A stretch of DNA of 64,000 nt from a virus, in the IMG/VR virus record IMGVR_UViG_3300028584_000098, positions 1 to 64,000 of that record, one strand, 5' to 3'. A model generated the notes under the pieces. It did no database searches and was not told where the DNA came from. It saw only the letters and a program-made list of their open reading frames with translations. Shown piece by piece: positions 10,745 through 24,183 of this stretch. Positions within the stretch are counted from its first letter, which is position 1; the number at the start of each line of letters is the position of its first letter. The translations under genes and the position numbers were made by a program.

Positions 10745-10773
10745 TTGACTTTTGTTCCCTATTTTGTTATTAT
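10745..10773 (+). promoter_or_regulatory. sigma70-type promoter (family copy)
   Basis: TTGACT 10745-10750, 17 bp, TATTAT 10768-10773. Confidence 0.75.
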
Positions 10774-10792
10774 AAAGACTAAGGAGAACGGA

Positions 10793-10990
10793 ATGCTCAA
10801 AGTTTATATAGCAGCTACAGATGCTGGTTACGGTTATTTTGATAATGTTCTGTGGCTAGAGAATGGATCAGATAAGTTTCTTATTGAGTTCACGGAGTCT
10901 ACTGTTGCAAGATTTGAGACCTTGATGAGTGACGGTACCAAATTAGCTAAAATGCTTGGAATTGAATTGGAGCTTATCTATGTCAGCTGA
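10793..10990 (+). CDS. hypothetical protein (65 aa)
   Basis: ATG 10793 follows an AAGGAGA RBS and is in frame with track ORF 10745-10990, whose listed start lies inside the promoter. Confidence 0.6.
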   Translation: MLKVYIAATDAGYGYFDNVLWLENGSDKFLIEFTESTVARFETLMSDGTKLAKMLGIELELIYVS

Positions 10991-11144
10991 AATTATTGAC
11001 TTTGATCTAGCATATCAGCGTATTAAGGGTCCGATTGCCGCAATGGCATTTCGTAACCATCGTAATCTTCGTATGACACATCTTATTGTGAACGGAGTTT
11101 ACGTAGCAAAAGCAGATAAAGGTGGGCCTATGAAGGCGGCCTAA
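10980..11144 (+). CDS. hypothetical protein (54 aa)
   Basis: ATG 10980 overlaps the previous gene's end and is in frame with track ORF 10956-11144. Confidence 0.5.
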   Translation: MSAEIIDFDLAYQRIKGPIAAMAFRNHRNLRMTHLIVNGVYVAKADKGGPMKAA

Positions 11145-11223
11145 AGTTTAATCCGTCGTCTAAAGCTAGAAGACGCCTTTTAGGGTTGGATGTGAGAAGT
11201 CGATGCTCACCGGATTAACGAGA

Positions 11224-11296
11224 CGCGGGGTAGTGTAGGTGGATTTTGCACGACGGCCTCATAAGCCGTAGGAGGGGTTCGACTCCCCCGATCGCA
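11224..11296 (+). pseudogene. initiator-like tRNA-Met (CAT) with a broken 3' acceptor strand
   Basis: The 5' two-thirds are well formed: CGCGGGG-TA-GTGT...GCAC-G-ACGGC-CTCATAA-GCCGT, T loop TTCGACT. The 3' end CCCCCGATCGCA cannot pair with CGCGGGG. A homing-endonuclease cassette starts 16 nt downstream. Confidence 0.4.
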
Positions 11297-11311
11297 TCTC
11301 GAAAATATTTC

Positions 11312-11340
11312 TTGACATTTTAGCTGTACAGTGTTAAACT
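11312..11340 (+). promoter_or_regulatory. sigma70-type promoter, probably giving a leaderless mRNA
   Basis: TTGACA 11312-11317, 17 bp, TAAACT 11335-11340. The ATG at 11346 sits at the expected transcription start and has no SD. Confidence 0.55.
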
Positions 11341-11345
11341 TGTTT

Positions 11346-12065
11346 ATGTTTAAATGTCCATATTGTTCTAAACCTTTTAAGTTCTGGATTTCTGTTAGAG
11401 GGCACACAAGTAGCTGCGCTACAAATACTAAAGAATATTATATAGATAAACTATACGGTCCGTTACACTACACTATTTTTGATAGTAAGACAGATAGAGA
11501 AATTAGATCAGTTTATCCTAAGCTAAATTCTTTATCTGATATTAGACGTACTTTTAGAAATAAAAATATAGTAGTAAATATACTGGAGGGAGCTATAATT
11601 TCTAAGCAAGATATTATAGTGGCCATACAAGATTATTACTTTATACATGGTAGGATACCTCAAATACGAGATTTTTATCACTCTAAGTATCCTGGAATTA
11701 CAACTATAAGAGATAGATTTGGTTCCTGGAACGAAGCTATTAAAGCTGCGGGTTTTGAGCCTAATGAAAATGATGGGTTTGGTACAAGAACTATAGCAGA
11801 TGATGGTGTTCTATATAGAAGCCATTATGAAACTATGTTTGTAAATAGATTTCTTTTTAATAAAGAGATTTATGAGTACGAAGTAAAGTACCCAAATCAT
11901 AATAAATACTATGATTTTTATCTTCCAGAACGTGATATCTATATAGAAATAGATGGTGGTTGTAGGCCTGTTGTAATGGAAGAAAAGCTAAAAATCAATA
12001 AAGAATTAGGTAGAAATTTACTTGTCATTAAAGGTAATGAAATTGCTACTTTTAGTGGGTTCTAA
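11346..12065 (+). CDS. free-standing homing endonuclease, paralog 1 (N-terminal C2HC/C2H2-like finger, Vsr/DUF559-like PD-(D/E)XK C-terminus)
   Basis: MFKCPYCSKPF...HTSSC finger. FGSWNEAIKAAGF repeat typical of homing-endonuclease accessory domains. YDFYLPERDIYIEIDG nuclease-like block. In frame with track ORF 11331-12065. Confidence 0.6.
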   Translation: MFKCPYCSKPFKFWISVRGHTSSCATNTKEYYIDKLYGPLHYTIFDSKTDREIRSVYPKLNSLSDIRRTFRNKNIVVNILEGAIISKQDIIVAIQDYYFIHGRIPQIRDFYHSKYPGITTIRDRFGSWNEAIKAAGFEPNENDGFGTRTIADDGVLYRSHYETMFVNRFLFNKEIYEYEVKYPNHNKYYDFYLPERDIYIEIDGGCRPVVMEEKLKINKELGRNLLVIKGNEIATFSGF

Positions 12066-12187
12066 GGTTAGCCTCTAAATCGGCTCGCGTGGTCCTATGG
12101 TTAGGCCGCACCCGAGGGCGGAAGTAAAACACTTCGTTAAAAACGGGTTAGAGGCTTTCCGGTGAGCCTATCACCGGCCGGATTTAT

Positions 12188-12262
12188 TCTCATTAATGCA
12201 CAAGGTGTGCAGCCGAGCTGTTAACTCGTGTGAGCTAGGTTCGATCCCTAGAATGAGAGCCA
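12188..12262 (+). tRNA. tRNA-Asn (GTT)
   Basis: Acceptor TCTCATT/AATGAGA, D arm TGCA-CAAGGTG-TGCA, loop CTGTTAA, T arm CTAGG-TTCGATC-CCTAG, CCA encoded. Confidence 0.85.
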
Positions 12263-12273
12263 AAATTTAGTTC

Positions 12274-12302
12274 TTGACTTCAACCGCCCAATCGGGTATT
12301 AT
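12274..12302 (+). promoter_or_regulatory. sigma70-type promoter (family copy)
   Basis: TTGACT 12274-12279, 17 bp, TATTAT 12297-12302. Confidence 0.75.
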
Positions 12303-12315
12303 TAGAGGGTAGACA

Positions 12316-12516
12316 TTGAGCAGCACGGCAATCAACGCGAAGCTAATCTTCGAAAAAGAAGTATTCTTTCTAGAAGCACTGAAGCGGAAGCTAGACTCAA
12401 CTGAGTCTGACGATCCTACGGAAGTTCGTCTTGCGGAAGAAGCCTCATGGGACTATGATCTAATTATTGCCTATTTTAAAGGTCGAATTAAAGAATTTGA
12501 AAAGTTGATTTGCTGA
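12316..12516 (+). CDS. hypothetical protein (66 aa, TTG start)
   Basis: Track ORF. Its stop codon TGA 12514-12516 lies inside the first 5 nt of tRNA-His. Confidence 0.4.
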   Translation: MSSTAINAKLIFEKEVFFLEALKRKLDSTESDDPTEVRLAEEASWDYDLIIAYFKGRIKEFEKLIC

Positions 12517-12587
12517 CTTAGCTCACCCGGTTAGAGCGCTGGTTTGTGGAGCCAGAGAATAGGGTTCGAGTCCCTAAGTCAGTGCCA
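12512..12587 (+). tRNA. tRNA-His (GTG)
   Basis: Acceptor GCTGACT/AGTCAGT, D arm GCTC-ACCCGGTTA-GAGC, anticodon arm CTGGT-TTGTGGA-GCCAG, T arm TAGGG-TTCGAGT-CCCTA, CCA encoded. Confidence 0.8.
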
Positions 12588-12661
12588 AAATATTCAGGCT
12601 CTGTTTGAGAAGCTAGACAATCAGACTGTGACATTTTGTGGAAACACAGAAATCTGAATTA

Positions 12662-12908
12662 GGTATCCGGGTGGCGGATTTAATGATGCGAAACTTGGCA
12701 TCGCCAAAAACTAGGTGGCTCAGTCGTGGAGCCTTAATGATATTACGATCTGATATCGCCTGAAATATAGATACGCTGTATATGGATGCCGTAAGGTCAC
12801 AGTGCGAGGTTCGAATCCTCGGCAGCAGCAGGAGACGTTCTGCAAGTATCAAAATACGTTAGTATTTCAAGGATTGGTGGCCGTATGGCCTTAATGATGT
12901 GCATCGCC
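12662..12908 (+). repeat. three paralogous ~35-47-nt structured RNA modules (hairpin-UUAAUGAU-hairpin-CGCC)
   Basis: Copies lie at 12662-12705, 12714-12760 and 12876-12908. Each is GGT-[hairpin 1]-TTAATGAT-[GATxx...xxATC hairpin]-GCC. A T-loop-like hairpin CGAGG-TTCGAAT-CCTCG (12804-12820) lies between copies 2 and 3. Confidence 0.55.
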
Positions 12909-13097
12909 AACCATATTTCGCAAACAGCTAGGGCACACTTTAGTAGCTGTTTTCGTAATATGGTGGGAATAGGTCGAACAAAGAATAGAGCAATAGCCAT
13001 TGGATAAATAGACCTTAACAGGTTTACCAGTGTCGCCGGGTACCCAACCGGACCGAAAGGATAAACTTTATCTCCTGATAAATCATATTTTCAATAT

Positions 13098-13172
13098 CGG
13101 GCTGAACTCCTACGGTTGGAGAACTGATTGTCTATCAGTTAGCAGCGAGTTCGACTCTCGTCAGCCTGACCA
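13098..13172 (+). tRNA. tRNA-Asp (GTC)
   Basis: Acceptor CGGGCTG/CAGCCTG, D arm CTCC-TACGGTT-GGAG, anticodon arm ACTGA-TTGTCTA-TCAGT, T arm GCGAG-TTCGACT-CTCGT, CCA encoded. Confidence 0.8.
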
Positions 13173-13179
13173 CTCTTAT

Positions 13180-13252
13180 GGCCCCGCCGAGGTATTGCGG
13201 ACATGTCCCTACGAAGGACGTTGGTTGGGTTAGACTCCTAACGGGGCTTCCA
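13180..13252 (+). tRNA. tRNA-Arg (ACG)
   Basis: Acceptor GGCCCCG/CGGGGCT, anticodon arm TGTCC-CTACGAA-GGACG, T arm TTGGG-TTAGACT-CCTAA, CCA encoded. The D arm is short. Confidence 0.65.
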
Positions 13253-13364
13253 TATTTGCTACGGAATGGTACGGCCATTTTCTCCTGAGGAGGTGATTAA
13301 TCATTTGCCTCATTCTGTAGTTTCGGTGTCCGGTCGCCTACATTGGTGGGCTCCCCGGCTCCGC

Positions 13365-13404
13365 GCCCGCTCGGGCGATGCTGACGACCCGAGCGGGCTT
13401 TATT
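13365..13404 (+). terminator. intrinsic terminator-like GC hairpin
   Basis: GCCCGCTCGGG (13365-13375) pairs with CCCGAGCGGGC (13388-13398) and is followed by TTTATT. Confidence 0.6.
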
Positions 13405-13406
13405 AT

Positions 13407-13481
13407 GCACGTTAGTCCGAGTGGTGAGGGCCTGTCCTGATAAGACAGTGGTGCTGGGATCGAAACCCAGAGCGTGTACCA
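13407..13481 (+). tRNA. tRNA-Ile (GAT)
   Basis: Acceptor GCACGTT/AGCGTGT, anticodon arm CTGTC-CTGATAA-GACAG, T arm CTGGG-ATCGAAA-CCCAG, CCA encoded. Confidence 0.8.
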
Positions 13482-13488
13482 ATATTAT

Positions 13489-13564
13489 AGGCCTAGGCCC
13501 ATCTGAGAATGGGGAGCGACTCTTAATCGCTATGTTTAGGGTTTGAATCCCTTTAGGCCTACCA
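13489..13564 (+). tRNA. tRNA-Lys (CTT)
   Basis: 76 nt with canonical numbering. Acceptor AGGCCTA/TAGGCCT, D stem CCCA/TGGG, anticodon arm AGCGA-CTCTTAA-TCGCT, A73, CCA encoded. Confidence 0.85.
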
Positions 13565-13572
13565 AAAATTCT

Positions 13573-13661
13573 GGGTGAGTACCAAAGCGGCCGAATGGGG
13601 TAGACTTTTAATCTGCTTGTAGAAATACACATCATGGGTTCGAATCCCCTCTCACCCTCCA
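13573..13661 (+). tRNA. class II (long variable arm, Leu-like body) tRNA carrying anticodon UUU
   Basis: Acceptor GGGTGAG/CTCACCC, 3-bp D stem CCA/TGG, anticodon arm GTAGA-CTTTTAA-TCTGC, variable arm TGTA-GAAA-TACA, T loop TTCGAAT, U73, CCA encoded. Confidence 0.65.
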
Positions 13662-13673
13662 TAAGGAGAATTA

Positions 13674-13844
13674 ATGACATACAATATTAGATACAGCCCA
13701 GCAGGACGAGCACGAAATTCCCTGCTTACGGGTGGGGGGGCTCCTGCTGGCTTCTCGCGCACGACCTACAACGGCGTCGCGGTCACATACAACGGTCGGC
13801 CGGTCTTCGATGACGGCGCAAACTTTCTAGTGAGGGCCGCATGA
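13674..13844 (+). CDS. junction-spanning small protein (56 aa)
   Basis: AAGGAG 13663-13668, ATG 13674. The first ~9 codons are AT-rich backbone and the rest is high-GC (…TTYNGVAVTYNGRPVFDDG…). The stop overlaps the next start (ATGA at 13841). Confidence 0.5.
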   Translation: MTYNIRYSPAGRARNSLLTGGGAPAGFSRTTYNGVAVTYNGRPVFDDGANFLVRAA

Positions 13845-15421
13845 CCGAGTTCGTAAACGTCCTCTATGAGGTGGGCGTTCCGCGTGGCCTCCAAGGCTCA
13901 AACGCCTTCAATCTGGCTGACGCCGGGGCGGAGCTCAACTACTACATCGACGCCTCTACGGGTGTTGTCTCGCTGTCGCTGGCTGGTGGGACCAAGTACC
14001 ATCTGACCGGCTACATTGCCGTCAAACCGGGCGTCACCTATCGGCGTTTCAATGCTTCAGGCCCCATCGGATACTTCGACAGGAACCTGACTTGGATCTC
14101 CGGCGCGAGCCCCGGCACGACATTCACGCCGCCTGCTGACGCTGCATACGTGCGGATATCCATCGTTCGCAGCGCTTGGCGCAATTCCTGGCTGATCGTT
14201 AACGGCGGCGCGACCGTTTGGACCCCCTACGGAAACCGCATCGTCAATCAGGCGGTAAACCCGCTCCAGGTCGGCTATCTCCGCAACTCAAAATATCGGC
14301 TCGCAAAGCGACTGTTGCCGACGCCAGAGGCTGAGCGGATCATCATCAATGCAGCCGGAGACAGCTACACGCAGGCGCCAACCCGATGGACCGGCCCCTT
14401 CATGGATTACATGGCCGCGAAGTACGGCGATGGCGGCGGCGGCTGGTGCGGCTTCAGCTTCGCCTCAGCTGGAACGCCGCCCTACACCCTGGGTAACCAG
14501 CCCTCACTACTGAACGGCAATGTTCGACCCGCGACCTACCCGACCAAGGTGTACGGCTCGCCCACCGCCTCTTACGGCTCCAAGAACATGCCTGATATCA
14601 GCGCGATCACGCTGGCAGCGTCTGGCGACTACGTCTTTCAAGCCTTCCCCGCTACGCCGGTCCATAACGGTTGCGACCTGTTCTTTGAGGGCACATCCAA
14701 CGGCGTGGTCAAATACCGTTGGGGAACCTATGTGTCGGGCTCCGTCAGCGACCCGGCCAGCTATAGCTTTGGGTCTGATACGAATATCAACCTGCAAGGA
14801 GCGCTGGCTGCGACCCAAGTGGCGGACATCAAGACCGGCATGCCTAGCGGCGCGGGGGCGGTCATCGTTGAATGGGTCTCTGGCAGCTCCATCGTAAGCG
14901 GCGTCAACCTCAAGTCGGCGGCCAGCGGCGTAGTGGTCAACAAGCTGGCATGCAGCGGCTCTCAGGTCGCTAGTTGGACGAGCAAGACAGCCGCTCAATG
15001 GCAGGCGGGCATGACTGCCTTGGGCGGCGAACTCTTCGTCTTCATGGATGGTCCAAACAGCCAAGCCTCAACCATATTGCCCGCTGTCTGGCGTTCGTCG
15101 GTCGGGACGCTGATGACGCGCCTACGCACCGCGCTTCCCGCCTCAGACATCTTGCTGGCCACCCCGCCGGAGAACCAGCGCACCTACAACCGCATCAGCA
15201 TCCTGAGTTATCAGGTCGAGGCTGCGGCAGCGTCCATCGAGAACGCCTACACCCACTTGGACCTTCAAACGGCCTTCGGTGACGGCGGCAACGCTACCGA
15301 GTATGGCAGCGCCGGGATCGTCCCCTTGTTCAACGCCGACCTGCTGCATCCTGAACCCCTTACCGGCGGCAGGTTGCTCATGAAGGAGTTTGCGCGGGCC
15401 ATTGAGCCGATGGCCGCTTAG
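13841..15421 (+). CDS. SGNH/GDSL-family esterase with N-terminal lectin-like domain (tail-fibre/tailspike-type glycan esterase candidate)
   Basis: SGNH blocks appear in order: IINAAGDSYTQ (block I), GGGGWCGF (II), FMDGPNSQ (III), NADLLHPEP (V). The gene is high-GC and is the only long ORF with sensible composition in this island. Confidence 0.65.
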   Translation: MTEFVNVLYEVGVPRGLQGSNAFNLADAGAELNYYIDASTGVVSLSLAGGTKYHLTGYIAVKPGVTYRRFNASGPIGYFDRNLTWISGASPGTTFTPPADAAYVRISIVRSAWRNSWLIVNGGATVWTPYGNRIVNQAVNPLQVGYLRNSKYRLAKRLLPTPEAERIIINAAGDSYTQAPTRWTGPFMDYMAAKYGDGGGGWCGFSFASAGTPPYTLGNQPSLLNGNVRPATYPTKVYGSPTASYGSKNMPDISAITLAASGDYVFQAFPATPVHNGCDLFFEGTSNGVVKYRWGTYVSGSVSDPASYSFGSDTNINLQGALAATQVADIKTGMPSGAGAVIVEWVSGSSIVSGVNLKSAASGVVVNKLACSGSQVASWTSKTAAQWQAGMTALGGELFVFMDGPNSQASTILPAVWRSSVGTLMTRLRTALPASDILLATPPENQRTYNRISILSYQVEAAAASIENAYTHLDLQTAFGDGGNATEYGSAGIVPLFNADLLHPEPLTGGRLLMKEFARAIEPMAA

Positions 15422-15422
15422 A

Positions 15423-15451
15423 CCCCCACACCCCTACTCAGTTTGTGGGGG
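15423..15451 (+). terminator. hairpin immediately after the esterase stop (no U-tract)
   Basis: CCCCCACA (15423-15430) pairs with TGTGGGGG (15444-15451). Confidence 0.35.
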
Positions 15452-15529
15452 TGCTGGTCTCCCATCTGGCCCGATATTTGAGTCCAAGAGTTGCAGGCGG
15501 GACTTCGTTCATAGAGCGGAGTCCCGAAA

Positions 15530-15820
15530 ATGCACACCTTCTCACAAGCCGCCGCCAGCTACCTCGAACACGGCGGCGAGGCTCGATATCTCGCCCGCCT
15601 GGTCGAGCGCTTCGGCGCCGACGATGTGACCACGATCACGCCGATGGCGGTTCGAACCGCCGCGGTCGATCTCTATCCCGACGCCTCGCCTGCGACCCGC
15701 AACCGGCAGGGCATCACCCCGGCCCGCTGCGTCCTCTATCACGCCCATGAACTGGGCTGGCGCATGCCTGCGCCTGGCCAATTTCTTAAACTTATGAAAG
15801 TCAAGGATTATATAAAATAA
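15530..15820 (+). pseudogene. 5' stub of a tyrosine integrase gene (N-terminal SAM-like domain only)
   Basis: MHTFSQAAASYLEHGGEARYL...ITPMAVRTAAVDLYPDASPATRNRQGITPARCVLYHAHELGW resembles integrase N-termini. The reading frame leaves high-GC DNA at ~15,780 and ends 13 codons later in backbone sequence. No catalytic domain is present. Confidence 0.5.
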
Positions 15821-15823
15821 TTC

Positions 15824-15852
15824 TTGACTTTCACTGCCTAACATACTATACT
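15824..15852 (+). promoter_or_regulatory. sigma70-type promoter (family copy)
   Basis: TTGACT 15824-15829, 17 bp, TATACT 15847-15852. Confidence 0.8.
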
Positions 15853-15858
15853 ATTTAA

Positions 15859-16054
15859 ATCGAATATGAAATACTGATTGAAAAAACAGCGTAAGGGGTA
15901 ACGCCCTTCTGTTAGACTGCACAAAGTAAGGAGTCCTGCCCTGAAAATAAGCGCTAAGGGAATAAATAAGTGGCTTAGCGGCTGCAGATATAAGACCCAT
16001 GCATAGAATATCTGGCTTAGCGGCCTAATTTAATCAGTATCTCATATTTGATTC
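15859..16054 (+). ncRNA. ~195-nt structured leader RNA closed by a long-range helix; abuts tRNA-Gly
   Basis: ATATGAAATACTGATT (15864-15879) pairs with AATCAGTATCTCATAT (16032-16047). TGGCTTAGCGGC is duplicated (15971-15982, 16013-16024) around a CAGATAT/ATATCTG hairpin. No ORF. Confidence 0.5.
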
Positions 16055-16128
16055 GCGTCTTTCGTATAATGGTATTATCACAGCCTTCCAAGCTGAGGAC
16101 ACGGGTTCGATTCCCGTAGGACGCTCCA
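16055..16128 (+). tRNA. tRNA-Gly (TCC)
   Basis: TCGTATAATGGTATTATCACAGCCTTCCAAGCTGAGGA is close to my recollection of enterobacterial Gly(UCC). Acceptor GCGTCTT/AGGACGC, T arm ACGGG-TTCGATT-CCCGT, CCA encoded. Confidence 0.85.
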
Positions 16129-16136
16129 ATTTCTAC

Positions 16137-16213
16137 GCACCCGTCGTCAAGTGGTCCAAGACCGTGAGCTCATAACTCATTTATCACTGGTTCGAATCCA
16201 GTCGGGTGTACCA
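16137..16213 (+). tRNA. tRNA-Met or Ile2 (CAT)
   Basis: Acceptor GCACCCG/CGGGTGT, anticodon arm GTGAG-CTCATAA-CTCAT, T arm ACTGG-TTCGAAT-CCAGT, CCA encoded. Confidence 0.8.
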
Positions 16214-16238
16214 TATTTTCTTAACAAGGATACTGAAT

Positions 16239-16394
16239 ATGCGAACTGCTGTATATGATGAAGATGCTGTAGAGTTGTACGAAGATGGTACTCTTATTGA
16301 CACCCGGTACGTTGGTGATAAGAGTATTTACTGGATCGAAGATATGATCGAGAATTGGGAGTTAGGGTTAATTAATGCTGCGTTAGCTCAGTAG
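16239..16394 (+). CDS. small hypothetical protein (51 aa)
   Basis: ATG 16239 follows an AAGGA RBS and is in frame with track ORF 16206-16394. The last 6 codons and the stop (TAG 16392-16394) are encoded by the 5' end of tRNA-Thr. Confidence 0.45.
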   Translation: MRTAVYDEDAVELYEDGTLIDTRYVGDKSIYWIEDMIENWELGLINAALAQ

Positions 16395-16452
16395 GTAGAG
16401 CAACTCCTTTGTAACGAGAAGGTCGCCAGTTCGATTCTGGCACGCAGCCCCA
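16377..16452 (+). tRNA. tRNA-Thr (TGT)
   Basis: 76 nt with canonical numbering. Acceptor GCTGCGT/ACGCAGC, D arm GCTC-AGTAGGTA-GAGC, positions 34-36 TGT (weak anticodon stem), T arm GCCAG-TTCGATT-CTGGC, CCA encoded. Confidence 0.75.
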
Positions 16453-16460
16453 CTTTTTGA

Positions 16461-16532
16461 TGTTCTGGATATGGTTATCTCCCGCGGTCTCATAAGCTGC
16501 AGGATCGGGATCGAAACCCGATGGAACTCCCA
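16461..16532 (+). tRNA. atypical tRNA-like gene with CAT anticodon loop
   Basis: T arm TCGGG-ATCGAAA-CCCGA and CCA are good. Acceptor TGTTCTG/TGGAACT has a U1:U72 mismatch. The D hairpin GATA-TGGT-TATC is tiny. The anticodon stem extends to 9 bp (TCCCGCGGT/GCTGCAGGA). Confidence 0.4.
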
Positions 16533-16662
16533 AAAGTCTTTTGCCTTATAAAGTACGAGCCTGTTAGTGTCCATTGGAAGTGGGCTAATAGTGTCTTTCT
16601 AAGGGCCACACTAGCCCTGGATGATTCTGGTAGTGCGGGAGATAGTCACTTTATACCGCTAA

Positions 16663-16737
16663 GGACTTTTAGCTCAGTAGGTAGAGCGTCTGGTTGAAGC
16701 CCAGAAGGCCTCAGTTCAATTCTGAGAGGGTCCACCA
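16663..16737 (+). tRNA. tRNA-Phe (GAA)
   Basis: Acceptor GGACTTT/AGGGTCC, D arm GCTC-AGTAGGTA-GAGC, anticodon arm TCTGG-TTGAAGC-CCAGA, T arm CTCAG-TTCAATT-CTGAG, CCA encoded. Confidence 0.85.
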
Positions 16738-16739
16738 AA

Positions 16740-17447
16740 ATGAAATGTCCATATTGTAGTAAATTATTTAATTCCTGGAAATCAGTATCGGCTCATACAG
16801 CACACTGTTCTAGCAATTCGGGCGAGTACTATATACATAAAATTTATGGACCACTACATTATTCTACATTTAATACCTCTATAAAAGAAGTACGAGCACA
16901 ATATCCCTTAATTAACGATATATCTACAGTACTTAAAAACTTTGCTAAACGTAATATAGTAGTGGATTATACTCGTAGGCACCAGAGCCCTTCAGAACTG
17001 CTAGAAAATATTAGGATATTCTACAACAAATATAACAGAGTGCCTCAGTATAGAGACTTTTCAAATAACGTTCCACAATCTAAAGTATACGTTAGACGTT
17101 TTGGTTCCTGGAATGAAGCTATAAAAGCTGCTGGCTTTGAACCAAATGAAAACGATGGATTTGGTACTAGAACTATAGCTAATGATGGTGTGTTATATAG
17201 AAGTCACTACGAGACTATGTTTGTAAATAAGTTTCTATTTAACAAAGAGATTTATAAATACGAAGTAAAGTACTCAAGCCATAATAAATACTACGATTTT
17301 TATCTTCCTGAGCGTGACATTTATATTGAAATAGATGGAGGTTGTAGGCCTACTGTAATGGAAGAAAAGATTGAAATTAATAAAGAATTAGGTAGAAACT
17401 TATTTGTTATTAAAGGCAATGAAGTTGCTACTTTTAAAGGATTTTAA
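16740..17447 (+). CDS. free-standing homing endonuclease, paralog 2
   Basis: MKCPYCSKLF...HTAHC finger. The C-terminal ~115 aa are nearly identical to the 11346-12065 product. The ATG lies 3 nt after the CCA of tRNA-Phe, with no SD and no promoter. Confidence 0.6.
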   Translation: MKCPYCSKLFNSWKSVSAHTAHCSSNSGEYYIHKIYGPLHYSTFNTSIKEVRAQYPLINDISTVLKNFAKRNIVVDYTRRHQSPSELLENIRIFYNKYNRVPQYRDFSNNVPQSKVYVRRFGSWNEAIKAAGFEPNENDGFGTRTIANDGVLYRSHYETMFVNKFLFNKEIYKYEVKYSSHNKYYDFYLPERDIYIEIDGGCRPTVMEEKIEINKELGRNLFVIKGNEVATFKGF

Positions 17448-17537
17448 GGACGTGAACAGGTGTTCCAAGGGCCTTATACACCCTTTAGTCGGCAGATAAC
17501 CGATTTGGTCTGGTTTCGAGTACCAGTGCGTCTACCA
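17448..17537 (+). tRNA. 90-nt tRNA-like element (enlarged D arm, loop CAGATAA)
   Basis: Acceptor GGACGTG/TGCGTCT (wobble-rich), T arm CTGGT-TTCGAGT-ACCAG, A+CCA 3' end, D-like arm GGTGT-14 nt-ACACC, anticodon-like arm GTCGG-CAGATAA-CCGAT with A at position 33. Confidence 0.35.
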
Positions 17538-17559
17538 TTTTAACCAAAGGAAAAATTTA

Positions 17560-17790
17560 ATGACTGATATAACTGCATTTGTCGCTGCAATCGTAGGATT
17601 AGTGGTGCTGGTATTTTTAAGCCCTATTATTGCCGCCGGGTTTGGTGCACTAGCAGGCTGGCTAGTCGGTAGCGCGTTCGTAGGAACTGCAGCAACTGTT
17701 CTAGCTGTTACAGGACTTCAACCCTACCAGTGGGGCGCTATCCTAGCGTTTGCAGGTAGCTTCTTTAAGTCCTACTTACAACAAAAGTAA
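17560..17790 (+). CDS. small Gly/Ala-rich membrane protein
   Basis: Track ORF with two hydrophobic helices containing GxxxG-type spacing. Confidence 0.6.
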   Translation: MTDITAFVAAIVGLVVLVFLSPIIAAGFGALAGWLVGSAFVGTAATVLAVTGLQPYQWGAILAFAGSFFKSYLQQK

Positions 17791-17861
17791 GCCCCCGCCG
17801 AAGGAGCGGTACCGAGACTTCTAATCTTGGGAAACTGGTTCGATTCCAGTCGGGGGTGCCA
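17791..17861 (+). tRNA. tRNA-Arg (TCT), compact D arm
   Basis: Acceptor GCCCCCG/CGGGGGT, anticodon arm CGAGA-CTTCTAA-TCTTG, T arm ACTGG-TTCGATT-CCAGT, CCA encoded. Only 71 nt. Confidence 0.6.
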
Positions 17862-17867
17862 TTTCGT

Positions 17868-17941
17868 TCTGGATTCGTCTAATGGTAAGACGGTGGGCTT
17901 TGGTCCCGCAGATTGAGGTTCGATCCCTTGATCCAGAGCCA
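17868..17941 (+). tRNA. tRNA-Gln (TTG)
   Basis: Acceptor TCTGGAT/ATCCAGA (U1-A72 as in bacterial Gln), anticodon arm GTGGG-CTTTGGT-CCCGC, T loop TTCGATC, CCA encoded. Confidence 0.8.
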
Positions 17942-17944
17942 TCT

Positions 17945-18021
17945 CCAGGTATAGCTCAGCGTGTTAGAGTACTCCGTTTGGAGCGGAGGGGTCGTGAGTT
18001 CAAATCCCACTACCCGGACCA
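17945..18021 (+). tRNA. tRNA-Pro (TGG)
   Basis: Acceptor CCAGGTA/TACCCGG (one A:C mismatch), D arm GCTC-AGCGTGTTA-GAGT, anticodon arm CTCCG-TTTGGAG-CGGAG, T loop TTCAAAT, CCA encoded. Confidence 0.75.
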
Positions 18022-18341: not shown

Positions 18342-18467
18342 TAGGAAAGCTACTATATTCTCCGGTACTATTGATAGTACAGCTCTTCACTAAGCTACTT
18401 AGCCCCGTTACTGGGGAGCAACTAATTAGCCCTATTACTAGTGAGGATCTGGGAGTACTCGAAAACA

Positions 18468-19379
18468 ATGGCTAGTAGAATATTAAACTCCGCGGACATA
18501 GCAGCAGCCGGTGGAGTGCTTAGCGGCGACGTAGGTACAATAACCGCCGTAATTGCCGCAAGTGAAAGTCAAACTGAACTTGCAGCTATAGCAACAGATG
18601 CGGCTAATGATGCTGCACTAGCGGCTACTACAGCCGCTGGACTTGCTAATACTGCAACTACAGCGGCTAATACGGCTACTAGTAACACAAATGCTGCTAT
18701 AACTGCAGCTAACACGGCTACTACTAATACAAATGCTGCTATAGCCGCGGCTACTACAGCTACTGGACTTGCTAATACTGCGACTACAGCGGCTAATACG
18801 GCTACTAGTAACACAAATGCTGCTATAACCGCAGCTAACACGGCTACTACTAATACAAATGCTGCTATAGCCGCGGCTACTACAGCCGCTGGACTTGCTA
18901 CAACAGCTACAACGGCCGCAACTGCTGCCGCCGCAGAGGCTACAGCTTCTGCCGATGCAGCCGACCTAATTACAGCTGCTGCGGAGGCATTCCTAGACAA
19001 TGTTAGTGGGCAAGAAATTGTAACTATTACAGCCCCTAGAATTCTTAGTGCCTCAGATAACGGAAAGCTTATTGCATTTAATGGAGCATCTCCTGGCTTA
19101 CTATACGCGGATGTAGGACTTCCTAATAGCTTTCAAGTAGAGATTATGAAAGCAGGTACGGGAAGTGTATTTACTATACCTGGTCCAGGAGCTACTATCG
19201 GTGCTGTAGCCGACGCAAAAGCTATAACAACTAGGTACGTTAGTGCTTGGTTAAGACAAATTGCAGATGGTTCATTTGTACTTACAGACGGAGACAGTAG
19301 TTCTTCGGCACCTAGTATTAATCGTCCTCTATTTAATAATTCTCTAGCGTCGGGCTTGGCCCTCGCTTGGTTCGCATAA
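18468..19379 (+). CDS. fibre-like protein with Ala/Thr/Asn-rich 42-aa tandem repeats
   Basis: ATG 18468 (GTG 18441 also possible). The repeat is AAGLANTATTAANTATSNTNAAITAANTATTNTNAAIAAATT, x2.3 copies, followed by a globular C-terminus. Confidence 0.6.
   Translation: MASRILNSADIAAAGGVLSGDVGTITAVIAASESQTELAAIATDAANDAALAATTAAGLANTATTAANTATSNTNAAITAANTATTNTNAAIAAATTATGLANTATTAANTATSNTNAAITAANTATTNTNAAIAAATTAAGLATTATTAATAAAAEATASADAADLITAAAEAFLDNVSGQEIVTITAPRILSASDNGKLIAFNGASPGLLYADVGLPNSFQVEIMKAGTGSVFTIPGPGATIGAVADAKAITTRYVSAWLRQIADGSFVLTDGDSSSSAPSINRPLFNNSLASGLALAWFA
18637..18915 (+). repeat. 126-bp tandem repeat (2 full copies plus a partial one)
   Basis: CTGGACTTGCTAATACTGC... recurs at 18637, 18763 and 18889. 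The two full copies differ at only a few positions. Confidence 0.85.
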
Positions 19380-19387
19380 GGAAAATC

Positions 19388-19966
19388 ATGGACTCAAAAA
19401 CTATTATAGATCAAGCGGGTAATCCCTTACTAATGGCAGGCCGTTTAGGCTCAGACGGTATTTTCCGTCCGGTTCACCACTCAGACGTTATCACTATTCA
19501 AACTGAAATTACCCGCCCAGCAGATACCGCTGCGTACCTTGCAGGCGATGCTATCGGAACAAGTGGTTCTGGTGTTATGAGTTTCAATATTGGTGCTCTT
19601 GGCCTAACAGCAGGGCTTATTGTTGGCGCTAGCTTAGTTCGTGACAAGGTAACAAACCCGGGAGTACGCTTTAGAGCTGCCATTCACGATGCTGCTATTG
19701 CCACAGCTCCGGCTGCTGATAATGCCCCAGCTCCTATGCTTTATGCCAATCGTGTGACTCGCCGTGGTTGGGTGGATTTCTTCACCTCAAACGCAGGCGT
19801 AGCCTCCGGGTCTAATGCACTAGAATATGCAGGTGTTCTTAGCAATCCACAAGGAATTGTTGTAGCTCCAAATGCTGGTATTCTATATTTAAGTCTACAG
19901 ACTTTAGATGCTTTCACTCCTGAAAGTGCTGGTAAGTTTATGATTGAGTTAGATATAGTAGTATGA
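19388..19966 (+). CDS. hypothetical protein (fibre cluster)
   Basis: ATG 19388 follows AAGGAA and is in frame with track ORF 19367-19966. Confidence 0.6.
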   Translation: MDSKTIIDQAGNPLLMAGRLGSDGIFRPVHHSDVITIQTEITRPADTAAYLAGDAIGTSGSGVMSFNIGALGLTAGLIVGASLVRDKVTNPGVRFRAAIHDAAIATAPAADNAPAPMLYANRVTRRGWVDFFTSNAGVASGSNALEYAGVLSNPQGIVVAPNAGILYLSLQTLDAFTPESAGKFMIELDIVV

Positions 19967-22302
19967 GTATGGCAGGAGCCGTTGCGGCGGCTATCCGCAA
20001 TACTAATTATTATAGTGATCTGTTTTCGGGAGGAGCTAGATTAGCCCTAGAGTTTGTTGGGACTAAAACAGGTAAGCCTTTTTACGGTTACGATAATAGA
20101 GTACTTAACTCCTACGCCAACATCCCCGGCTGGACCTTCACCCGCGCCTCAACGGGCTATGCGGAAGGGCTGGTTGACGACGTTGTGACCAACAAGGTTA
20201 CGGCTTGGAATGCCAACCCAACTGAAGCTGCTGGGTTTGTCGGCACTCCGTTTGGGATGCTCAAGGGCGGCGACGCGGCAGCGGTGCTGTCGGTAGTCAA
20301 CGACGTTGCTGCGTTGGCTGCTGCGGGCCTGTCGGGCGTCTGCACTTCCGGCAAGGTTTACAAGCTGGACAATACTGCGGGGAGTACGGCGGCATTCTGT
20401 AATACTGTCGGGCCATGCGGAAACACCAACAATCACTCGGTGTCTTCTTGGGCTAGGGGCGCTGCAGGTATTTTAGGGATTGGTGCGGGAGGCTCTACCG
20501 GCTTCGCGGCTTCTGGCCCGTATGTGCGGCGCACCCATGCCACGCCCGGTGTAGCCCCTAACTCCATGTTTATCGGGGCCAACGCCGGAGCCGTCGTCTA
20601 CTTCATCCTCCCCCAACTGATCGAGCGCCCCGCCGCTATCAGCCAAGACATTGTGACTGAAGGCGCTGCTGCGTCTGCTGTGGTCGGTCGGGTCAATGGA
20701 TACGTCTCGTTTGCATCGGGCGTTCCTGCAATTACCAGCAAAGGCCTGTCGGTGTGGGAAAGCCGTACTAACCTCTGCTTACAATCTAATACTCCATCTG
20801 ATGCATCATGGAACAAGAACGCTTGTTCTGTGGGTAGCGCGGTTCTCGGTCCAGATGCTGTCTTATCCGCGTATCCCATCACGGAGAGTACGGCAGGGTC
20901 TCTCCTGCGGAATATTACTGCAATCACAATTGCCTCTGGGTCAACGTACGCAATCAGCCGACTTGTTCGCCGGGGCAACTGCGACTGGATCCGTATACTG
21001 GCTGGCGACGACACCTCATTCACCAACAGTGTGCGCATCTGGTTCAATATGGCGACAGGAACAGTTGGCACTGCTGGCGTACTAGGCACTGGCTGGTCGT
21101 TCGCCAAGACTTCTGAAGTGACGGCGCTGGGCAATAGCTGGTATCGCGTCACCATGTTCGTGACGACTGGCGCAACCACCCTGTTCATCGGCAACTGCAC
21201 TGCAAACTCCGACAACACTACCAACCGCGCCGACGTCGGTGGCGGCTTTGGCGTGAATGCAGCGTACATTGTACACAACGCTGATGTTGAGCTTGGAGCA
21301 TTCCCTACTCCTCCGGTCATCACCACCACTGCCGCCGCAACCCGCGCTGCTGACAATGCCAGCATCACCGGGCTGGGCCCGCTCCTGGGGCAGTTCAGGA
21401 CGAACCTGCTGCTGCACTCAAACGATTTCGCTAATGCGGTCTGGCAAAAGGTAGCCCTCGGTAGTGGCGTAGCCCCAGTTCTGACTGCTGGTTTTGCAGA
21501 CCCGAACGGGGGTCTAGAGGCCACAAGGATCGTGTTTGATCGGGGATCTGGTACGACTGGCAACGACAGATCCAATATTAATCAGGACTATGGTGCCACC
21601 TCTGTATACACCTCTTCCATATGGCTGCGCGCAGACGCCCCAGTGCCTGTTAGTCTTCGCAGCCCCGCAAACACTGGCGGCCACACTACTATCAACGTTA
21701 CTACGGCGTGGCAGAGGTTTGAATTGTACGGAACGGCGACGCTCAGCTCAAACTTTCTGCTGGGCCTTCGCGGTGATCTAACGGCGAACAGTACCGCTAC
21801 GGTCTATGTTTACGGTGCCCAAGGTGAAACCGGCCCAGTCGCAACTCCGTACATCCCCACCACGACTGCTGCCGTCACGGTCGGCAACCCATTTACAATG
21901 GTGTCTTGGGGGGATTTGCCGGCGATTGATGGCACGGAAAGATATTTGGCAATTGCTCGGGACGCGGGCGGCGGGCTTGGCAATAATGTTTCGCTAAGGC
22001 GTTCTTCTGCAAACGCGGCGCGAATGACAGTTACAAATTCCGGTTCCGCTGTTGCTGTTAGTCCGCCGGGCGCTTTTGCGGGTGCCCTTACTATTAAGAG
22101 CGCAGGAAGGGTGCGTGTGGATGGTTTCGCGACCGCAGCTAATGGTTCGGCACTGGCTTCCGCCACACAAGCCGCCCCCGCTGTGTTGGCAACGCTATAT
22201 CTAGGCATAAACATAAATACGCAGTTCCTCAATGGCTACCTCCAGCGCGTCTTCATCTATGGCGATGTAGGCGATGCACAATTACAAAGGTTAACACAAT
22301 GA
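19963..22302 (+). CDS. mosaic tail-fibre / receptor-binding protein with two lectin-like repeats
   Basis: ATGA-coupled at both ends. About the first 50 and last 25 codons are AT-rich backbone and the ~2.1-kb core is high-GC. Two internal repeats begin NLCLQSNTPSDASWNK... and NLLLHSNDFANAVWQK... Confidence 0.65.
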   Translation: MSMAGAVAAAIRNTNYYSDLFSGGARLALEFVGTKTGKPFYGYDNRVLNSYANIPGWTFTRASTGYAEGLVDDVVTNKVTAWNANPTEAAGFVGTPFGMLKGGDAAAVLSVVNDVAALAAAGLSGVCTSGKVYKLDNTAGSTAAFCNTVGPCGNTNNHSVSSWARGAAGILGIGAGGSTGFAASGPYVRRTHATPGVAPNSMFIGANAGAVVYFILPQLIERPAAISQDIVTEGAAASAVVGRVNGYVSFASGVPAITSKGLSVWESRTNLCLQSNTPSDASWNKNACSVGSAVLGPDAVLSAYPITESTAGSLLRNITAITIASGSTYAISRLVRRGNCDWIRILAGDDTSFTNSVRIWFNMATGTVGTAGVLGTGWSFAKTSEVTALGNSWYRVTMFVTTGATTLFIGNCTANSDNTTNRADVGGGFGVNAAYIVHNADVELGAFPTPPVITTTAAATRAADNASITGLGPLLGQFRTNLLLHSNDFANAVWQKVALGSGVAPVLTAGFADPNGGLEATRIVFDRGSGTTGNDRSNINQDYGATSVYTSSIWLRADAPVPVSLRSPANTGGHTTINVTTAWQRFELYGTATLSSNFLLGLRGDLTANSTATVYVYGAQGETGPVATPYIPTTTAAVTVGNPFTMVSWGDLPAIDGTERYLAIARDAGGGLGNNVSLRRSSANAARMTVTNSGSAVAVSPPGAFAGALTIKSAGRVRVDGFATAANGSALASATQAAPAVLATLYLGININTQFLNGYLQRVFIYGDVGDAQLQRLTQ
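20112..22200. other. high-GC core (island 2) inside the fibre gene
   Basis: Line 21301 has 39/60 G+C. Long spurious ORFs run on both strands (for example 20598-21575 on the - strand). Confidence 0.75.
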
Positions 22303-22550
22303 CATGGAACTTAGCAATAATTGATAACCCAAAATTTGATACAGGGTACCACATTAACCTGCCCAACTATCTTCTTACAGAAGAACTAGGGCAATTCCAA
22401 GTGTTTCCCGAAACACCTAATGTGGTTTTCGCAGGACAGGAGACAGTATTCCTATCCTTTGAAAATGAGGCTCAAGCAATTGCAGCTTTACCCCAATATT
22501 GGATCGAAGAATATGTAACCGATGAGGAATTGGTAGAGCTTAGTGAATAA
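22299..22550 (+). CDS. hypothetical protein (possible fibre chaperone by position)
   Basis: Track ORF with ATGA coupling to the fibre gene. AT-rich backbone composition. Confidence 0.55.
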   Translation: MTWNLAIIDNPKFDTGYHINLPNYLLTEELGQFQVFPETPNVVFAGQETVFLSFENEAQAIAALPQYWIEEYVTDEELVELSE

Positions 22551-22556: not shown

Positions 22557-22585
22557 TTGACTTTAACTGGTTGATGGACTATACT
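22557..22585 (+). promoter_or_regulatory. sigma70-type promoter, tandem copy 1
   Basis: TTGACT 22557-22562, 17 bp, TATACT 22580-22585. Confidence 0.8.
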
Positions 22586-22589
22586 AAAT

Positions 22590-22628
22590 CAGAGGTGGAG
22601 AAGCCCTTCGGAGAATACTCCGCCTCTG
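22590..22628 (+). ncRNA. 39-nt hairpin RNA
   Basis: CAGAGGTGGAG (22590-22600) pairs with CTCCGCCTCTG (22618-22628). The inner loop contains C-TTCG-G. It starts about 5-7 nt after the -10. Confidence 0.5.
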
Positions 22629-22638
22629 AAAATAGTTC

Positions 22639-22667
22639 TTGACTTTAACTGGTTGATGAACTATACT
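22639..22667 (+). promoter_or_regulatory. sigma70-type promoter, tandem copy 2
   Basis: TTGACT 22639-22644, 17 bp, TATACT 22662-22667. The ~37 bp around it are near-identical to copy 1. Confidence 0.8.
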
Positions 22668-22674
22668 ATATAAA

Positions 22675-22746
22675 TCGACACATTAGATAAGACATTAGTC
22701 AGCATATTCTCACGAATCCACTGCTACAGAGTATCTAATGTGTCGA
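22675..22746 (+). ncRNA. 72-nt RNA closed by a perfect 15-bp terminal helix
   Basis: TCGACACATTAGATA (22675-22689) pairs with TATCTAATGTGTCGA (22732-22746). It is not a cloverleaf. Confidence 0.5.
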
Positions 22747-22755
22747 AAATAGTTC

Positions 22756-22784
22756 TTGACTTTAGTTACTTAAAAGTCTATAAT
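22756..22784 (+). promoter_or_regulatory. sigma70-type promoter, tandem copy 3
   Basis: TTGACT 22756-22761, 17 bp, TATAAT 22779-22784. Confidence 0.8.
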
Positions 22785-22876: not shown

Positions 22877-23690
22877 TTTACTTTATATGCCGCGTGCGGC
22901 AAGAGGTTACGTGAGTAACTGACAGGGGAGGCTCCCATAGCCCTTCCCGACCTCGCAAGAGGCCAAAGCACGCAGATTGGGCTAGCAGGAGAGACCCTGA
23001 GCTTCCGAGAGGGAGACGAATCTAGAAGGTATGCCTAAAGAGTCGGGTCTGGGTAACTCCGGGACTTGGTCTGCTCGTCGCAAGCGAGATAGGGGTGCAA
23101 CATTCCGATAGAGGAGCTGCTAACAATCGAGAGTACGTTATAGTTCGAGTCCCGCAGACAAGAGCGCGTATCAAAGCACTAGGGAACTGGTTATACAAGG
23201 GCGAAAGTTCTTGTAGCGTCAATATGTCCTAGCGTTTAGTCTAGTAGGCCGCAAACCGAAAGATATTGAGGTGTGTTGTATTTCGCTCCCAAAAGGAACC
23301 GAAGCAACTGGACTGGCACATCTCCGTGGGTTGCAAAAATTTCATTTGGATTGAAAATCAATAAACGCAAAAGACTGGTCCGGTACATGGTGTAAGTAGC
23401 CAAATACTTCAGCGTAAGCAATGAAGTCATGGAGAGGCCGCAAGCTAATTCATGTTGGTTGGGAAGGTTTCATAGGAAGTTAGCGCTTTCGAATGGCTCG
23501 CAAGGTCAGTGGGAATAGAACAGCCGAGTAATCATGTATGACAGAGTAAATGCTAGCTCTTTAAATCTAGCGGCTATGGCGAAATAGAGAATACTTTCTC
23601 TGGACACGTATAAACCCTCCGGGTCGCACTGGGTGTGGAATTATATACTAAGGTTCGTCGTACTAAGCGGTAATCTCACGCTTATCAATA

Positions 23691-23720
23691 AGGCCGTCAC
23701 TTCCTGTGACGGCCTTTTTC
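23691..23720 (+). terminator. intrinsic terminator
   Basis: AGGCCGTCAC (23691-23700) pairs with GTGACGGCCT (23706-23715) and is followed by TTTT. Confidence 0.8.
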
Positions 23721-23733: not shown

Positions 23734-24183
23734 ATGTTAGAAGATGCAAAAAAAGCAATAGCTGCAAGTTCAAAAGAAAGCTCTGTCTATATTGGTAGCG
23801 ACTCAATTCGCTTCAAGAAAGCTGGAGTTTGGTACGCCCGATATTCAACAGTCGTAATTCTTCACCTAGACTCTAAGCACGGCTGTAAACTATTTCATAG
23901 CACAGAAACCATGCGAGACTATGGTTCGATGAAGCAGAGACTCCTGACAGAAGTTTCGTACACAGTAACACTAGCTCTAGAATTACTAGAGGTAATCGGT
24001 GAACGCCACTTGGAAGTTCACCTTGACCTTAACGCTAATCCTCGGCATAAATCTAACGTAGCCGTTAAGGAAGCACTAGGATTCTGCCATGGTAGTCTAC
24101 CTGGAGTACAAGTAGAGATTAAACCTAACGGATGGGCTGCATCTTCTTGTGCAGATCATCTAGTACGCGGTAAGCTCCAATAA
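23734..24183 (+). CDS. RNase H-like protein of the YkuK/DUF458 type
   Basis: The pattern YIGSDS ... VVILH ... LEVHLDLN ... S matches my recollection of the DUF458 fold family. Confidence 0.45.
   Translation: MLEDAKKAIAASSKESSVYIGSDSIRFKKAGVWYARYSTVVILHLDSKHGCKLFHSTETMRDYGSMKQRLLTEVSYTVTLALELLEVIGERHLEVHLDLNANPRHKSNVAVKEALGFCHGSLPGVQVEIKPNGWAASSCADHLVRGKLQ

Follow-up and report, generated by a model that had tools for sequence, protein, structure and literature searches.

ORF779 (19963..22302, plus strand) is an open reading frame (ORF) for a 779-residue multi-domain protein, most probably an accessory glycan-binding adhesin. It lies in the window, the stretch of 64,000 nucleotides from IMG/VR virus record IMGVR_UViG_3300028584_000098 that was analysed here. 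The protein falls in phrog_5939 ('tail protein') and in the NCBIfam family NF048003. The gene is a mosaic: composition and identity both break within an intact frame, and the flanks are common to AT-rich relatives. Probably the body of the adhesin was replaced from the homologous gene of a phage or prophage richer in G+C (GC), which makes ORF779 a real and very clean example of a well-known process by which phages alter what they stick to.

According to this reading, ORF779 would be an accessory cell-surface adhesin encoded within a conserved four-gene cassette (ORF312, ORF199, ORF779 and ORF83). A short N-terminal module would fix it to the virion, most likely through ORF199, encoded just upstream, and four beta-sandwich domains (module A, two GTA_spike_fiber domains and a C-terminal domain) would bind surface polysaccharide in the first, reversible step of adsorption. 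Codons 49-767 would have been exchanged, by a double crossover inside two conserved terminal motifs, for their counterpart in a homologue carried by a phage or prophage whose GC is distinctly higher. Such a replacement would have left the frame, residues 1-48 of the anchor and the translational coupling at either end intact, with an altered glycan specificity as the expected outcome.

A composition break within an intact reading frame

ORF779 is joined to both neighbours by ATGA overlaps, as a preliminary description of the window had stated: at 19963-19966 the stop of ORF199 overlaps the start of ORF779, and at 22299-22302 the stop of ORF779 overlaps the start of ORF83. GC at third codon positions (GC3) is 0.573 over the whole of ORF779 versus 0.25-0.38 in twelve backbone genes, and its cassette neighbours keep native values (0.26 in ORF312, 0.31 in ORF199 and 0.35 in ORF83). 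The rise sits at synonymous sites and is not caused by the amino-acid sequence. At the level of single lines of sequence, 21301-21360 contains 39 G+C in 60 nucleotides, exactly as first counted.

The borders of the block were set by a maximum-likelihood two-breakpoint fit to the GC3 series across the four cassette genes. The fit returns a single block, 20109-22263 (codons 49-767), with GC3 0.597 inside and 0.286 outside, and a log-likelihood ratio of 67.8 nats (the largest in 200 permutations is 12.1). Within 2 lnL units, the left border may lie anywhere in 20085-20115 and the right one anywhere in 22251-22278. A two-state hidden Markov model (HMM) likewise finds one block, 20104-22263, with a posterior of 0.97; the span first proposed, 20100-22260, was accurate. 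Heterogeneity within the block is not significant (chi-square p = 0.06), giving no sign of a patchwork.

Three segments result, all on the plus strand. The native 5' segment (codons 1-48, 19963..20106, GC3 0.31) encodes the first two thirds of the N-terminal anchor. The foreign block (codons 49-767, 20107..22263, GC3 0.60) encodes the end of the anchor (IPGWxFxRASxGYAE), module A, the domains B1 and B2, and most of the C-terminal domain. The native 3' segment (22264..22302) is made of the last 12 codons and the stop, and includes the overlap with ORF83. The preliminary description had placed about 50 native codons at the start, close to the 48 of the GC3 fit. Its 25 codons at the end come down to about 12 (8-17); the dip in plain GC behind the higher figure takes in an AT-rich patch at 22195-22225 that falls inside the foreign block.

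Neither break coincides with a domain border. The left one (residues 48/49) lies within the conserved anchor module (residues 1-68), before IPGW, and the right one within the conserved C-terminal motif LNGYLQRVxIYGD. Since both breaks occur inside conserved terminal motifs, the donor gene was probably a homologue, which took the place of almost the entire original. An in-frame swap sparing the attachment end had been suggested from the start; the mosaic structure, the native 5' end and the foreign body all stand, but the position of the breaks points to near-whole-gene replacement by a homologue and not to a distal domain grafted on an old shaft. A direct repeat at the edges of the two GC-rich islands (13093-13114 and 20095-20116, 77%) was discarded: its 10-nt seed is expected dozens of times by chance in 11 kb.

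The break could have arisen without intragenic recombination if GC3 were intrinsic to the gene (through codon selection or local mutational bias), or if the whole cassette had been imported and its neighbours and gene ends had then drifted. Fibre genes of this family do tend to deviate from their backbone (GC3 0.68-0.69 versus ~0.8-0.9), and module A has a GC of ~0.45-0.54 in backbones of 0.44-0.64. Such an origin is nonetheless very improbable: drift cannot make steps within ~10 codons at both ends and yet leave 719 codons homogeneous, the highly expressed structural genes of the phage stand at GC3 0.25-0.29, and in L019, an AT-rich relative, GC3 is 0.19-0.40 over this anchor and module A.

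Two AT-rich relatives, L009 and L019 (ENA ERZ28594541, ERZ27275010), share the flanks, and L019 probably shows the native state of the gene. In the close relative L009 (47.6% GC), ORF199 shows 91% protein identity and 81% nucleotide identity over the ORF199 codon alignment, and a blastn match of 76% extends across the 3' end of ORF312 and ORF199; of the adhesin gene, the contig has no more than the first 12 nt. The AT-rich L019, with a contig of 1.2 kb, provides the best match to the anchor (63% identity) and is nearly identical to the window at the 3' end of ORF199 and the ATGA junction. It covers adhesin codons 1-243 only, with GC3 0.19 in the anchor and 0.38-0.40 in module A. A gene GC-rich throughout in relatives, named at the outset as an observation that would speak against the mosaic, is thus not what L019 shows. 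Codon agreement between the window and L019, that is, the fraction of identical residues with the same codon, stands at 0.60 for the flank in ORF199, at 0.55 for the first 48 adhesin codons and at 0.29 for codons 49-120. This fall at codon 49 indicates that the gene body in the window is not the vertical counterpart of the body in L019.

The GC-rich side of the mosaic is represented by contigs of 62-70% GC that bear homologues: L001 with the full-length protein P0004, L002-L004 with partial homologues, and the cassette loci L005-L008. Their adhesin genes have GC3 values of 0.68-0.79. Between the core and phage loci of 62-67% GC, DNA identity reaches 74-92%, in patches only: 74-77% with L001 in module A, 86% with L002 in the B1/B2 linker (21321-21419), and 92% with L001 in the linker between B2 and the C-terminal domain (21850-21901). 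On the left side, identity to the GC-rich homologues starts at 20116-20119, at the shared ATCCCCGGCTGG, just past the break. Module A is present in phages and prophages of 44-71% GC and is often mismatched to backbone GC, in both directions, which suggests that exchange across GC boundaries is normal for this adhesin family. The reverse mismatch is seen in L021, L023, L024 and L028 (IMG/VR; match at 6001-6500), contigs of 57-61% GC in which module A has 49-50% GC (GC3 0.44-0.47). Searches of INPHARED phages by megablast and tblastn gave nothing beyond one weak local match (42%). Scans of JGI metagenome contigs with ORF779 and ORF199 gave no match, the source contig itself included, and scans of IMG/VR with ORF199 and two DNA patterns conserved among AT-rich relatives gave none.

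An assembly chimera is a rival reading. An AT-rich phage and a co-occurring GC-rich phage would have been joined through short identical stretches, in and out within the fibre gene. One contig carries the ORF779 protein, scans returned no independent contigs, and GC-rich linker DNA is almost unchanged among family members, as it is over 32 nt at FILPQLIERPA in the window and L019. At that same motif L019 changes composition before losing homology, and the end of L009 within the fibre gene is what is expected at assembly-graph branches. Against these features, a chimera needs two in-frame jumps after which the 779-residue ORF is still intact and ATGA-coupled on both sides. On the left, the native sequence, as taken from L019, has no stretch in common with the GC-rich versions that would suffice for a k-mer join. 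The contig also holds ORF526, a GC-rich gene unrelated to the adhesin, with native tRNA genes on one side and a native promoter on the other, and mismatches in GC between module A and backbone, in both directions, are common in other, independent phage contigs. Because of the two in-frame joins, the lack of an evident shared k-mer on the left and the independent second GC-rich island, a chimera is distinctly improbable.

Replacement by a homologous gene remains the preferred reading, and several points weigh against it. The junctions come from one metagenomic contig, and the protein cluster has one member on one contig. No donor was found, the best full-length homologues being 28-38% identical. 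The sole relative with a native gene body, L019, is a contig of 1.2 kb that starts with the Nextera adapter AGATGTGTATAAGAGACAG; at codon ~218, in the FILPQ motif, it turns GC-rich with a jump in GC3 from ~0.3 to 0.95, and homology is lost after codon 243. L019:1-1156 may therefore be a second, independent mosaic with another breakpoint, or a chimeric contig. Moreover, the left-junction motif in its native form, as in L019, and in its GC-rich form is hardly alike at the DNA level, so that classical homologous recombination would have had only microhomology there. Finally, ORF199 is proposed as docking partner solely from co-occurrence, and the cassette in the window stands apart from the tail genes.

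Domains of the adhesin and its four-gene cassette

ORF779 has 46 homologues, five of them full-length (~780 residues; 28-38% identity), and their alignment is one of shuffled modules with conserved linkers between them. The domain map was drawn from HMMs built on homologues only. The anchor module (residues 1-68), shared by the cassette adhesins, is followed by module A (20179..20628, residues 73-222), a beta-sandwich that runs from VVTNKVT through CTSGKVYKLDN to YFILPQLIER (E 2.6e-58). Next come the two GTA_spike_fiber domains: B1 (20761..21354, residues 267-464), from RTNLCLQSN to TTTAAATRAAD (E 6e-37), and the more divergent B2 (21397..21879, residues 479-639), which starts with RTNLLLHSN and is matched in two pieces (E 1.6e-11 and 2e-14). 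The C-terminal beta-sandwich domain (21880..22299, residues 640-779), from NPFTM to LNGYLQRVFIYGD, is placed by alignment, secondary structure and matches in BFVD, which are phage proteins of the concanavalin A (ConA)-like lectin/glucanase type. All five features are on the plus strand.

The two lectin-like repeats noticed at first sight are real, and that wording was a fair one. They are two copies of one domain, that of NF048003, with the starts NLCLQSN at residue 270 and NLLLHSN at residue 481; the direct BLASTP likeness between B1 and B2 is slight (E 0.002). ORF779 scores 181.6 bits against NF048003 (GTA_spike_fiber, 'phage head spike fiber'), far above the cut-off of 36 (E 2e-53). The match is in two stretches, the best of which spans profile positions 2-182 of 182 at residues 264-463. 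Against the Protein Data Bank (PDB), the family profile retrieves Rcc01080 (6tb9), the head-spike fibre of the Rhodobacter capsulatus gene transfer agent (RcGTA), at E 1.5e-35, and the baseplate proteins E217 gp45 and Pa193 gp46 at 1e-14. A single-sequence search of the PDB with ORF779 gave no match, so that Rcc01080 is reached only by the family profile. In Pfam no match was obtained for ORF779, ORF199, ORF312, ORF83 or ORF526.

The AlphaFold2 model of ORF779 is all-beta, with a mean predicted local distance difference test (pLDDT) of 78.4 and a predicted template modelling (pTM) score of 0.72. Foldseek places 9b45 (3e-10) and 8env (3e-9) first among PDB entries, followed by structures with multiple carbohydrate-binding modules (CBMs), laminin-G and CBM40. 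In BFVD, proteins annotated as tail fibres or as 'concanavalin A-like lectin/glucanase' are the best viral matches. Modelled as a monomer, ORF779 strings together globular beta-sandwich domains and contains no shaft repeat of the kind expected in a trimeric shaft. In this it resembles the 'beads on a string' phage proteins built from ConA-like lectin/glucanase domains and CBMs (BFVD; CBM40, CBM22 and laminin-G in the PDB), which are all-beta too and have several jelly-roll or beta-sandwich domains; the resemblance is at the level of the fold only.

The anchor has the consensus M-x-x-x-GAVAAAIR ... PYYWY ... IPGWxFxRASxGYAE among cassette adhesins and occurs in every cassette having an ORF199 homologue. 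Searched against 1.84 billion representative proteins, residues 1-70 give 20 matches, in proteins of 226-1640 residues, and the majority of these matches start at residue 1. Proteins in which the match is N-terminal have 226-1023 residues. An anchor found at the N-terminus of proteins of such different length is best seen as a virion-proximal adaptor joined to interchangeable bodies. The preliminary description had assigned virion attachment to the N-terminus, and the conservation of the first ~70 residues as an adaptor bears this out.

The cassette begins with ORF312 (18441..19379, plus strand), whose likely true start is the ATG at 18468. Tandem repeats at 18606-18983 (42 nt and 126 nt) encode an Ala/Thr/Asn-rich repeat of 14 residues, which may form the shaft of an appendage. 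An analogous Ala/Asp/Thr-rich repeat is present in the L007 equivalent. The C-terminal domain of ORF312 is conserved, with 68% identity in L009, 45% in L005 and 31% in L007, and the gene always stands upstream of an ORF199 homologue.

ORF199 (19367..19966, plus strand; likely start ATG 19388, 192 residues) encodes a predicted single jelly-roll protein. Wherever the locus is long enough, its 14 homologues are flanked by genes of ORF312 and ORF779 type, and this co-occurrence makes ORF199 a candidate docking adaptor for the adhesin. The AlphaFold2 model (pLDDT 83.7) resembles viral capsid jelly rolls best among PDB folds, at a template modelling (TM) score of ~0.35. No PDB chain matches ORF199 by sequence or profile at E<=10. 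A weak homologue exists in the N4-like Rhizobium phage RHEph16, where it precedes a pectin-lyase-fold protein.

ORF83 (22299..22550, plus strand), the small conserved downstream partner, has homologues in L001, L002 and L005 that come right after the adhesin gene (E 1e-11 to 7e-16); the gene in this position in L007 has no BLAST match to ORF83. In relatives, the homologues either close a tail module distally or stand immediately ahead of lysis genes. In L005 (67% GC), the tail tube, the tape measure and a 967-residue tip protein are directly followed by the cassette. In L003, TMP_2, DUF1833, NlpC_P60 and a 904-residue protein precede the adhesin homologue. In L007 and L008 (70% GC), the cassette is at the end of a prophage, before the lysis genes.

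Placement on the virion and known systems

The siphovirus tail module of the phage is on the minus strand at 46-64 kb and encodes a major tail protein, a 1652-residue tape measure and a 2182-residue tip protein. The adhesin cassette is on the plus strand at 18.4-22.6 kb, some 25 kb away, between the tRNA array and early-type promoters. The label 'fibre', used initially, and placement on the tail go further than the data: the cassette is remote from the tail genes and on the other strand, and the best-studied homologue is a head spike. Heads and tails alike are known to carry the GTA_spike_fiber domain. The tail, for which the chances are about even, is favoured by the order of genes in L005 and L003; the RcGTA analogy and the position of the cassette in the window favour the head, a rather unlikely site.

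In RcGTA, the head spike is made of the fibre Rcc01080 (GhsB) on the base Rcc01079 (GhsA) (PDB 6TB9/6TBA; PMC7296036, PMC5026251, PMC10218006). Residues 2-10 of the fibre (IALGLGLGL) plug into a pentamer of the jelly-roll base, and the fibre binds the capsule (PMC7296036, PMC10218006). The NF048003 domain is common to this system and to ORF779, where it occurs twice. Further likenesses are the anchoring of the fibre by its extreme N-terminus with a flexible remainder that binds capsular polysaccharide, as predicted for ORF779, a fibre gene directly after a jelly-roll gene at a locus apart from the main structural cluster, and homologues of patchy distribution that are, by inference, exchanged by phages. 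Differences are equally clear. ORF779 is 2.4 times longer, with an additional module A and a C-terminal domain; its N-terminus is without the (Leu-Gly) repeat, and no relationship between ORF199 and Rcc01079 is detectable. The phage here is lytic-type, T5-like and tRNA-rich, with 42% GC.

A rival proposal, by this analogy, is a head spike instead of a tail fibre, with ORF199 as the multimeric base on capsid vertices and ORF779 as a flexible fibre anchored by its N-terminus; the mosaic history would be the same. Such a spike fits the presence of the curated 'phage head spike fiber' domain in duplicate, the family-profile match to Rcc01080, the agreement in gene order (PMC7296036) and the distance of the cassette from the tail module on the other strand. 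It also fits the family member P0010 (L002:10001-11791), from a temperate phage of 62% GC: it starts with MPLSLSLGLGL, resembling the Rcc01080 anchor (PMC7296036) and its Leu-Gly repeat, and continues with an anchor module of ORF779 type. The details of the two partners fit less well. The N-terminus of ORF779, MSMAGAVAAAIR, lacks the five-fold Leu repeat, and no (Ile/Leu-x) repeat of RcGTA type is found: ORF779 starts with MSMAGAVAAAIRN and cassette relatives with MAITGAVAAAIR or MSVQGAMAASLR, an alternating small/hydrophobic pattern without a Leu repeat. ORF199 has no match in the PDB even as a profile, and the RcGTA entries for Rcc01079 are absent from its 50 best fold matches, among which the best TM is ~0.35-0.45. 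ORF199, by prediction, and Rcc01079, as described (PMC7296036), are both jelly rolls, with no homology detectable by sequence, profile or fold search. In addition, the homologues in L005 and L003 come directly after tail-tip genes, and the domain is also present in baseplate proteins. A head spike is accordingly a doubtful alternative. A broader proposal is unlikely too: head spikes encoded by such cassettes would form a widespread system open to exchange, with ORF199 as base on capsid vertices and a monomeric multi-lectin ORF779 fibre, homologous to the RcGTA spike in logic and partly in sequence, spread among lytic T5-like and other phages, and retargeted when an AT-rich phage imports bodies from the GC-rich phages and prophages of its host.

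The best structural matches of ORF779, the baseplate 'triplex' or wedge proteins E217 gp45 (of a Pseudomonas phage) and Pa193 gp46 (PDB 8ENV, 9B45; PMC10329688, PMC11456595), with a profile match over the B domain, show that a domain of GTA_spike_fiber type occurs on tails too. Unlike ORF779, they are fixed parts of myovirus baseplates that hold the real tail fibre and are not terminal adhesins; one domain is in common.

Returning to the replacement reading, ORF779 shares with mosaic tail-fibre and receptor-binding genes a conserved virion-proximal N-terminus, exchangeable distal parts, breakpoints in short conserved motifs, and exchange between otherwise unrelated phages. Tetart et al. (1998) reportedly found exchange of T-even gp37/gp38 between conserved motifs, and Haggard-Ljungquist et al. 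(1992) are said to have described fibre mosaics among P2, Mu, P1 and lambda; branched lateral fibres of the T5-like phage DT57C were reportedly the subject of Golomidova et al. (2016). Compared with those mosaics, almost the whole gene is replaced in ORF779 and not the tip alone, and the gap in GC (GC3 0.29 versus 0.60) lets a single sequence map both junctions within ~10 codons. Host-recognition modules common to unrelated phages are also on record for Alteromonas (PMC10579305).

The general picture of phage tail-fibre evolution is unchanged by this case. What it offers is a receptor-binding gene replacement in which both junctions can be placed within about ten codons from sequence alone. 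Junctions inside conserved terminal motifs, and not at domain borders, are useful for choosing splice points in host-range engineering, and the locus is useful for studying gene exchange among phages of very different base composition. The analysis also defines a conserved four-gene adhesin cassette around the domain of the GTA head-spike fibre, with a 70-residue N-terminal adaptor fused to many bodies.

Island 1 and other features of the window

A second gene of foreign composition and host-interaction type, ORF526 (island 1, 13841-15421), has GC3 0.757 and falls in a family of GDSL/SGNH esterases, with PF13472 on record for homologues. Relatives in phages carry the annotation 'tail fibre protein', and the named ones in cells come from Sphingobium and Novosphingobium. 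In L016, a phage contig of 165 kb and 42% GC, a 70%-identical homologue adjoins the nicotinamide phosphoribosyltransferase (NAMPT) gene, and its GC3 of 0.43 is close to that of the neighbouring genes (0.28-0.47).

One donor lineage for island 1 and the adhesin core had been suggested from their similar composition. The data give this no specific support, nor do they speak against a shared donor. GC3 differs by 0.16 (0.60 in the core versus 0.76 in island 1). Relative synonymous codon usage (RSCU) correlates between the two at r = 0.66, within the range of 0.59-0.74 obtained between the core and unrelated high-GC phage genes, a likeness generic to high-GC DNA. By RSCU and dinucleotide signatures, core and island 1 are mutually no closer than to such genes. 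None of the loci compared carries homologues of both. An ORF at 15530-15820, considered as the N-terminal fragment of an integrase, was dropped, as it has no support from Pfam, PHROG or NCBIfam.

Both GC-rich blocks stop just before a native promoter. An element of ~70 nt with a promoter occurs in four copies (15824-15852, 22557-22585, 22639-22667 and 22756-22784), one right after island 1 and three right after the cassette. The latter three constitute tandem consensus promoters (TTGACT-17-TATACT/TATAAT; 22557-22784, plus strand) at the end of the cassette.

The carrier is a large tailed phage, recovered on a 97-kb JGI metagenome contig; the GC content of the window is 42.3%. In DNA polymerase the phage shares 45-49% identity with T5-like phages of 97-120 kb, and it is a distant T5-like siphovirus, lytic-type and tRNA-rich. 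A block for replication and nucleotide metabolism is on the plus strand of the window. The tRNA array (7288-18021) comprises 19 tRNAs detected by ARAGORN and two calls by Rfam only (11225-11296 and 13489-13561); the majority of its tRNAs read A/U-ending codons. Two paralogous ORFs (11331-12065 and 16740-17447) break up the array. Both are homing-endonuclease-like, with a C2H2-like zinc finger and an HNH_repeat domain, and very AT-rich (GC3 ~0.2). Ahead of the array, NAD salvage is represented at 4517-6891 by a nicotinamide mononucleotide (NMN) adenylyltransferase/Nudix gene and a NAMPT gene, a pair also present in L016.

A GOLLD RNA (RF02032; 23268-23682, plus strand) is matched over its full length at 169.8 bits, with a gathering score of 150. 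It lies ~720 nt 3' of the cassette, beside the phage tRNA array, with the three tandem promoters upstream. On its 3' side it is followed by a strong terminator-like hairpin (23690-23716) and then by an RNaseH-like ORF (23734-24183; PF04308).

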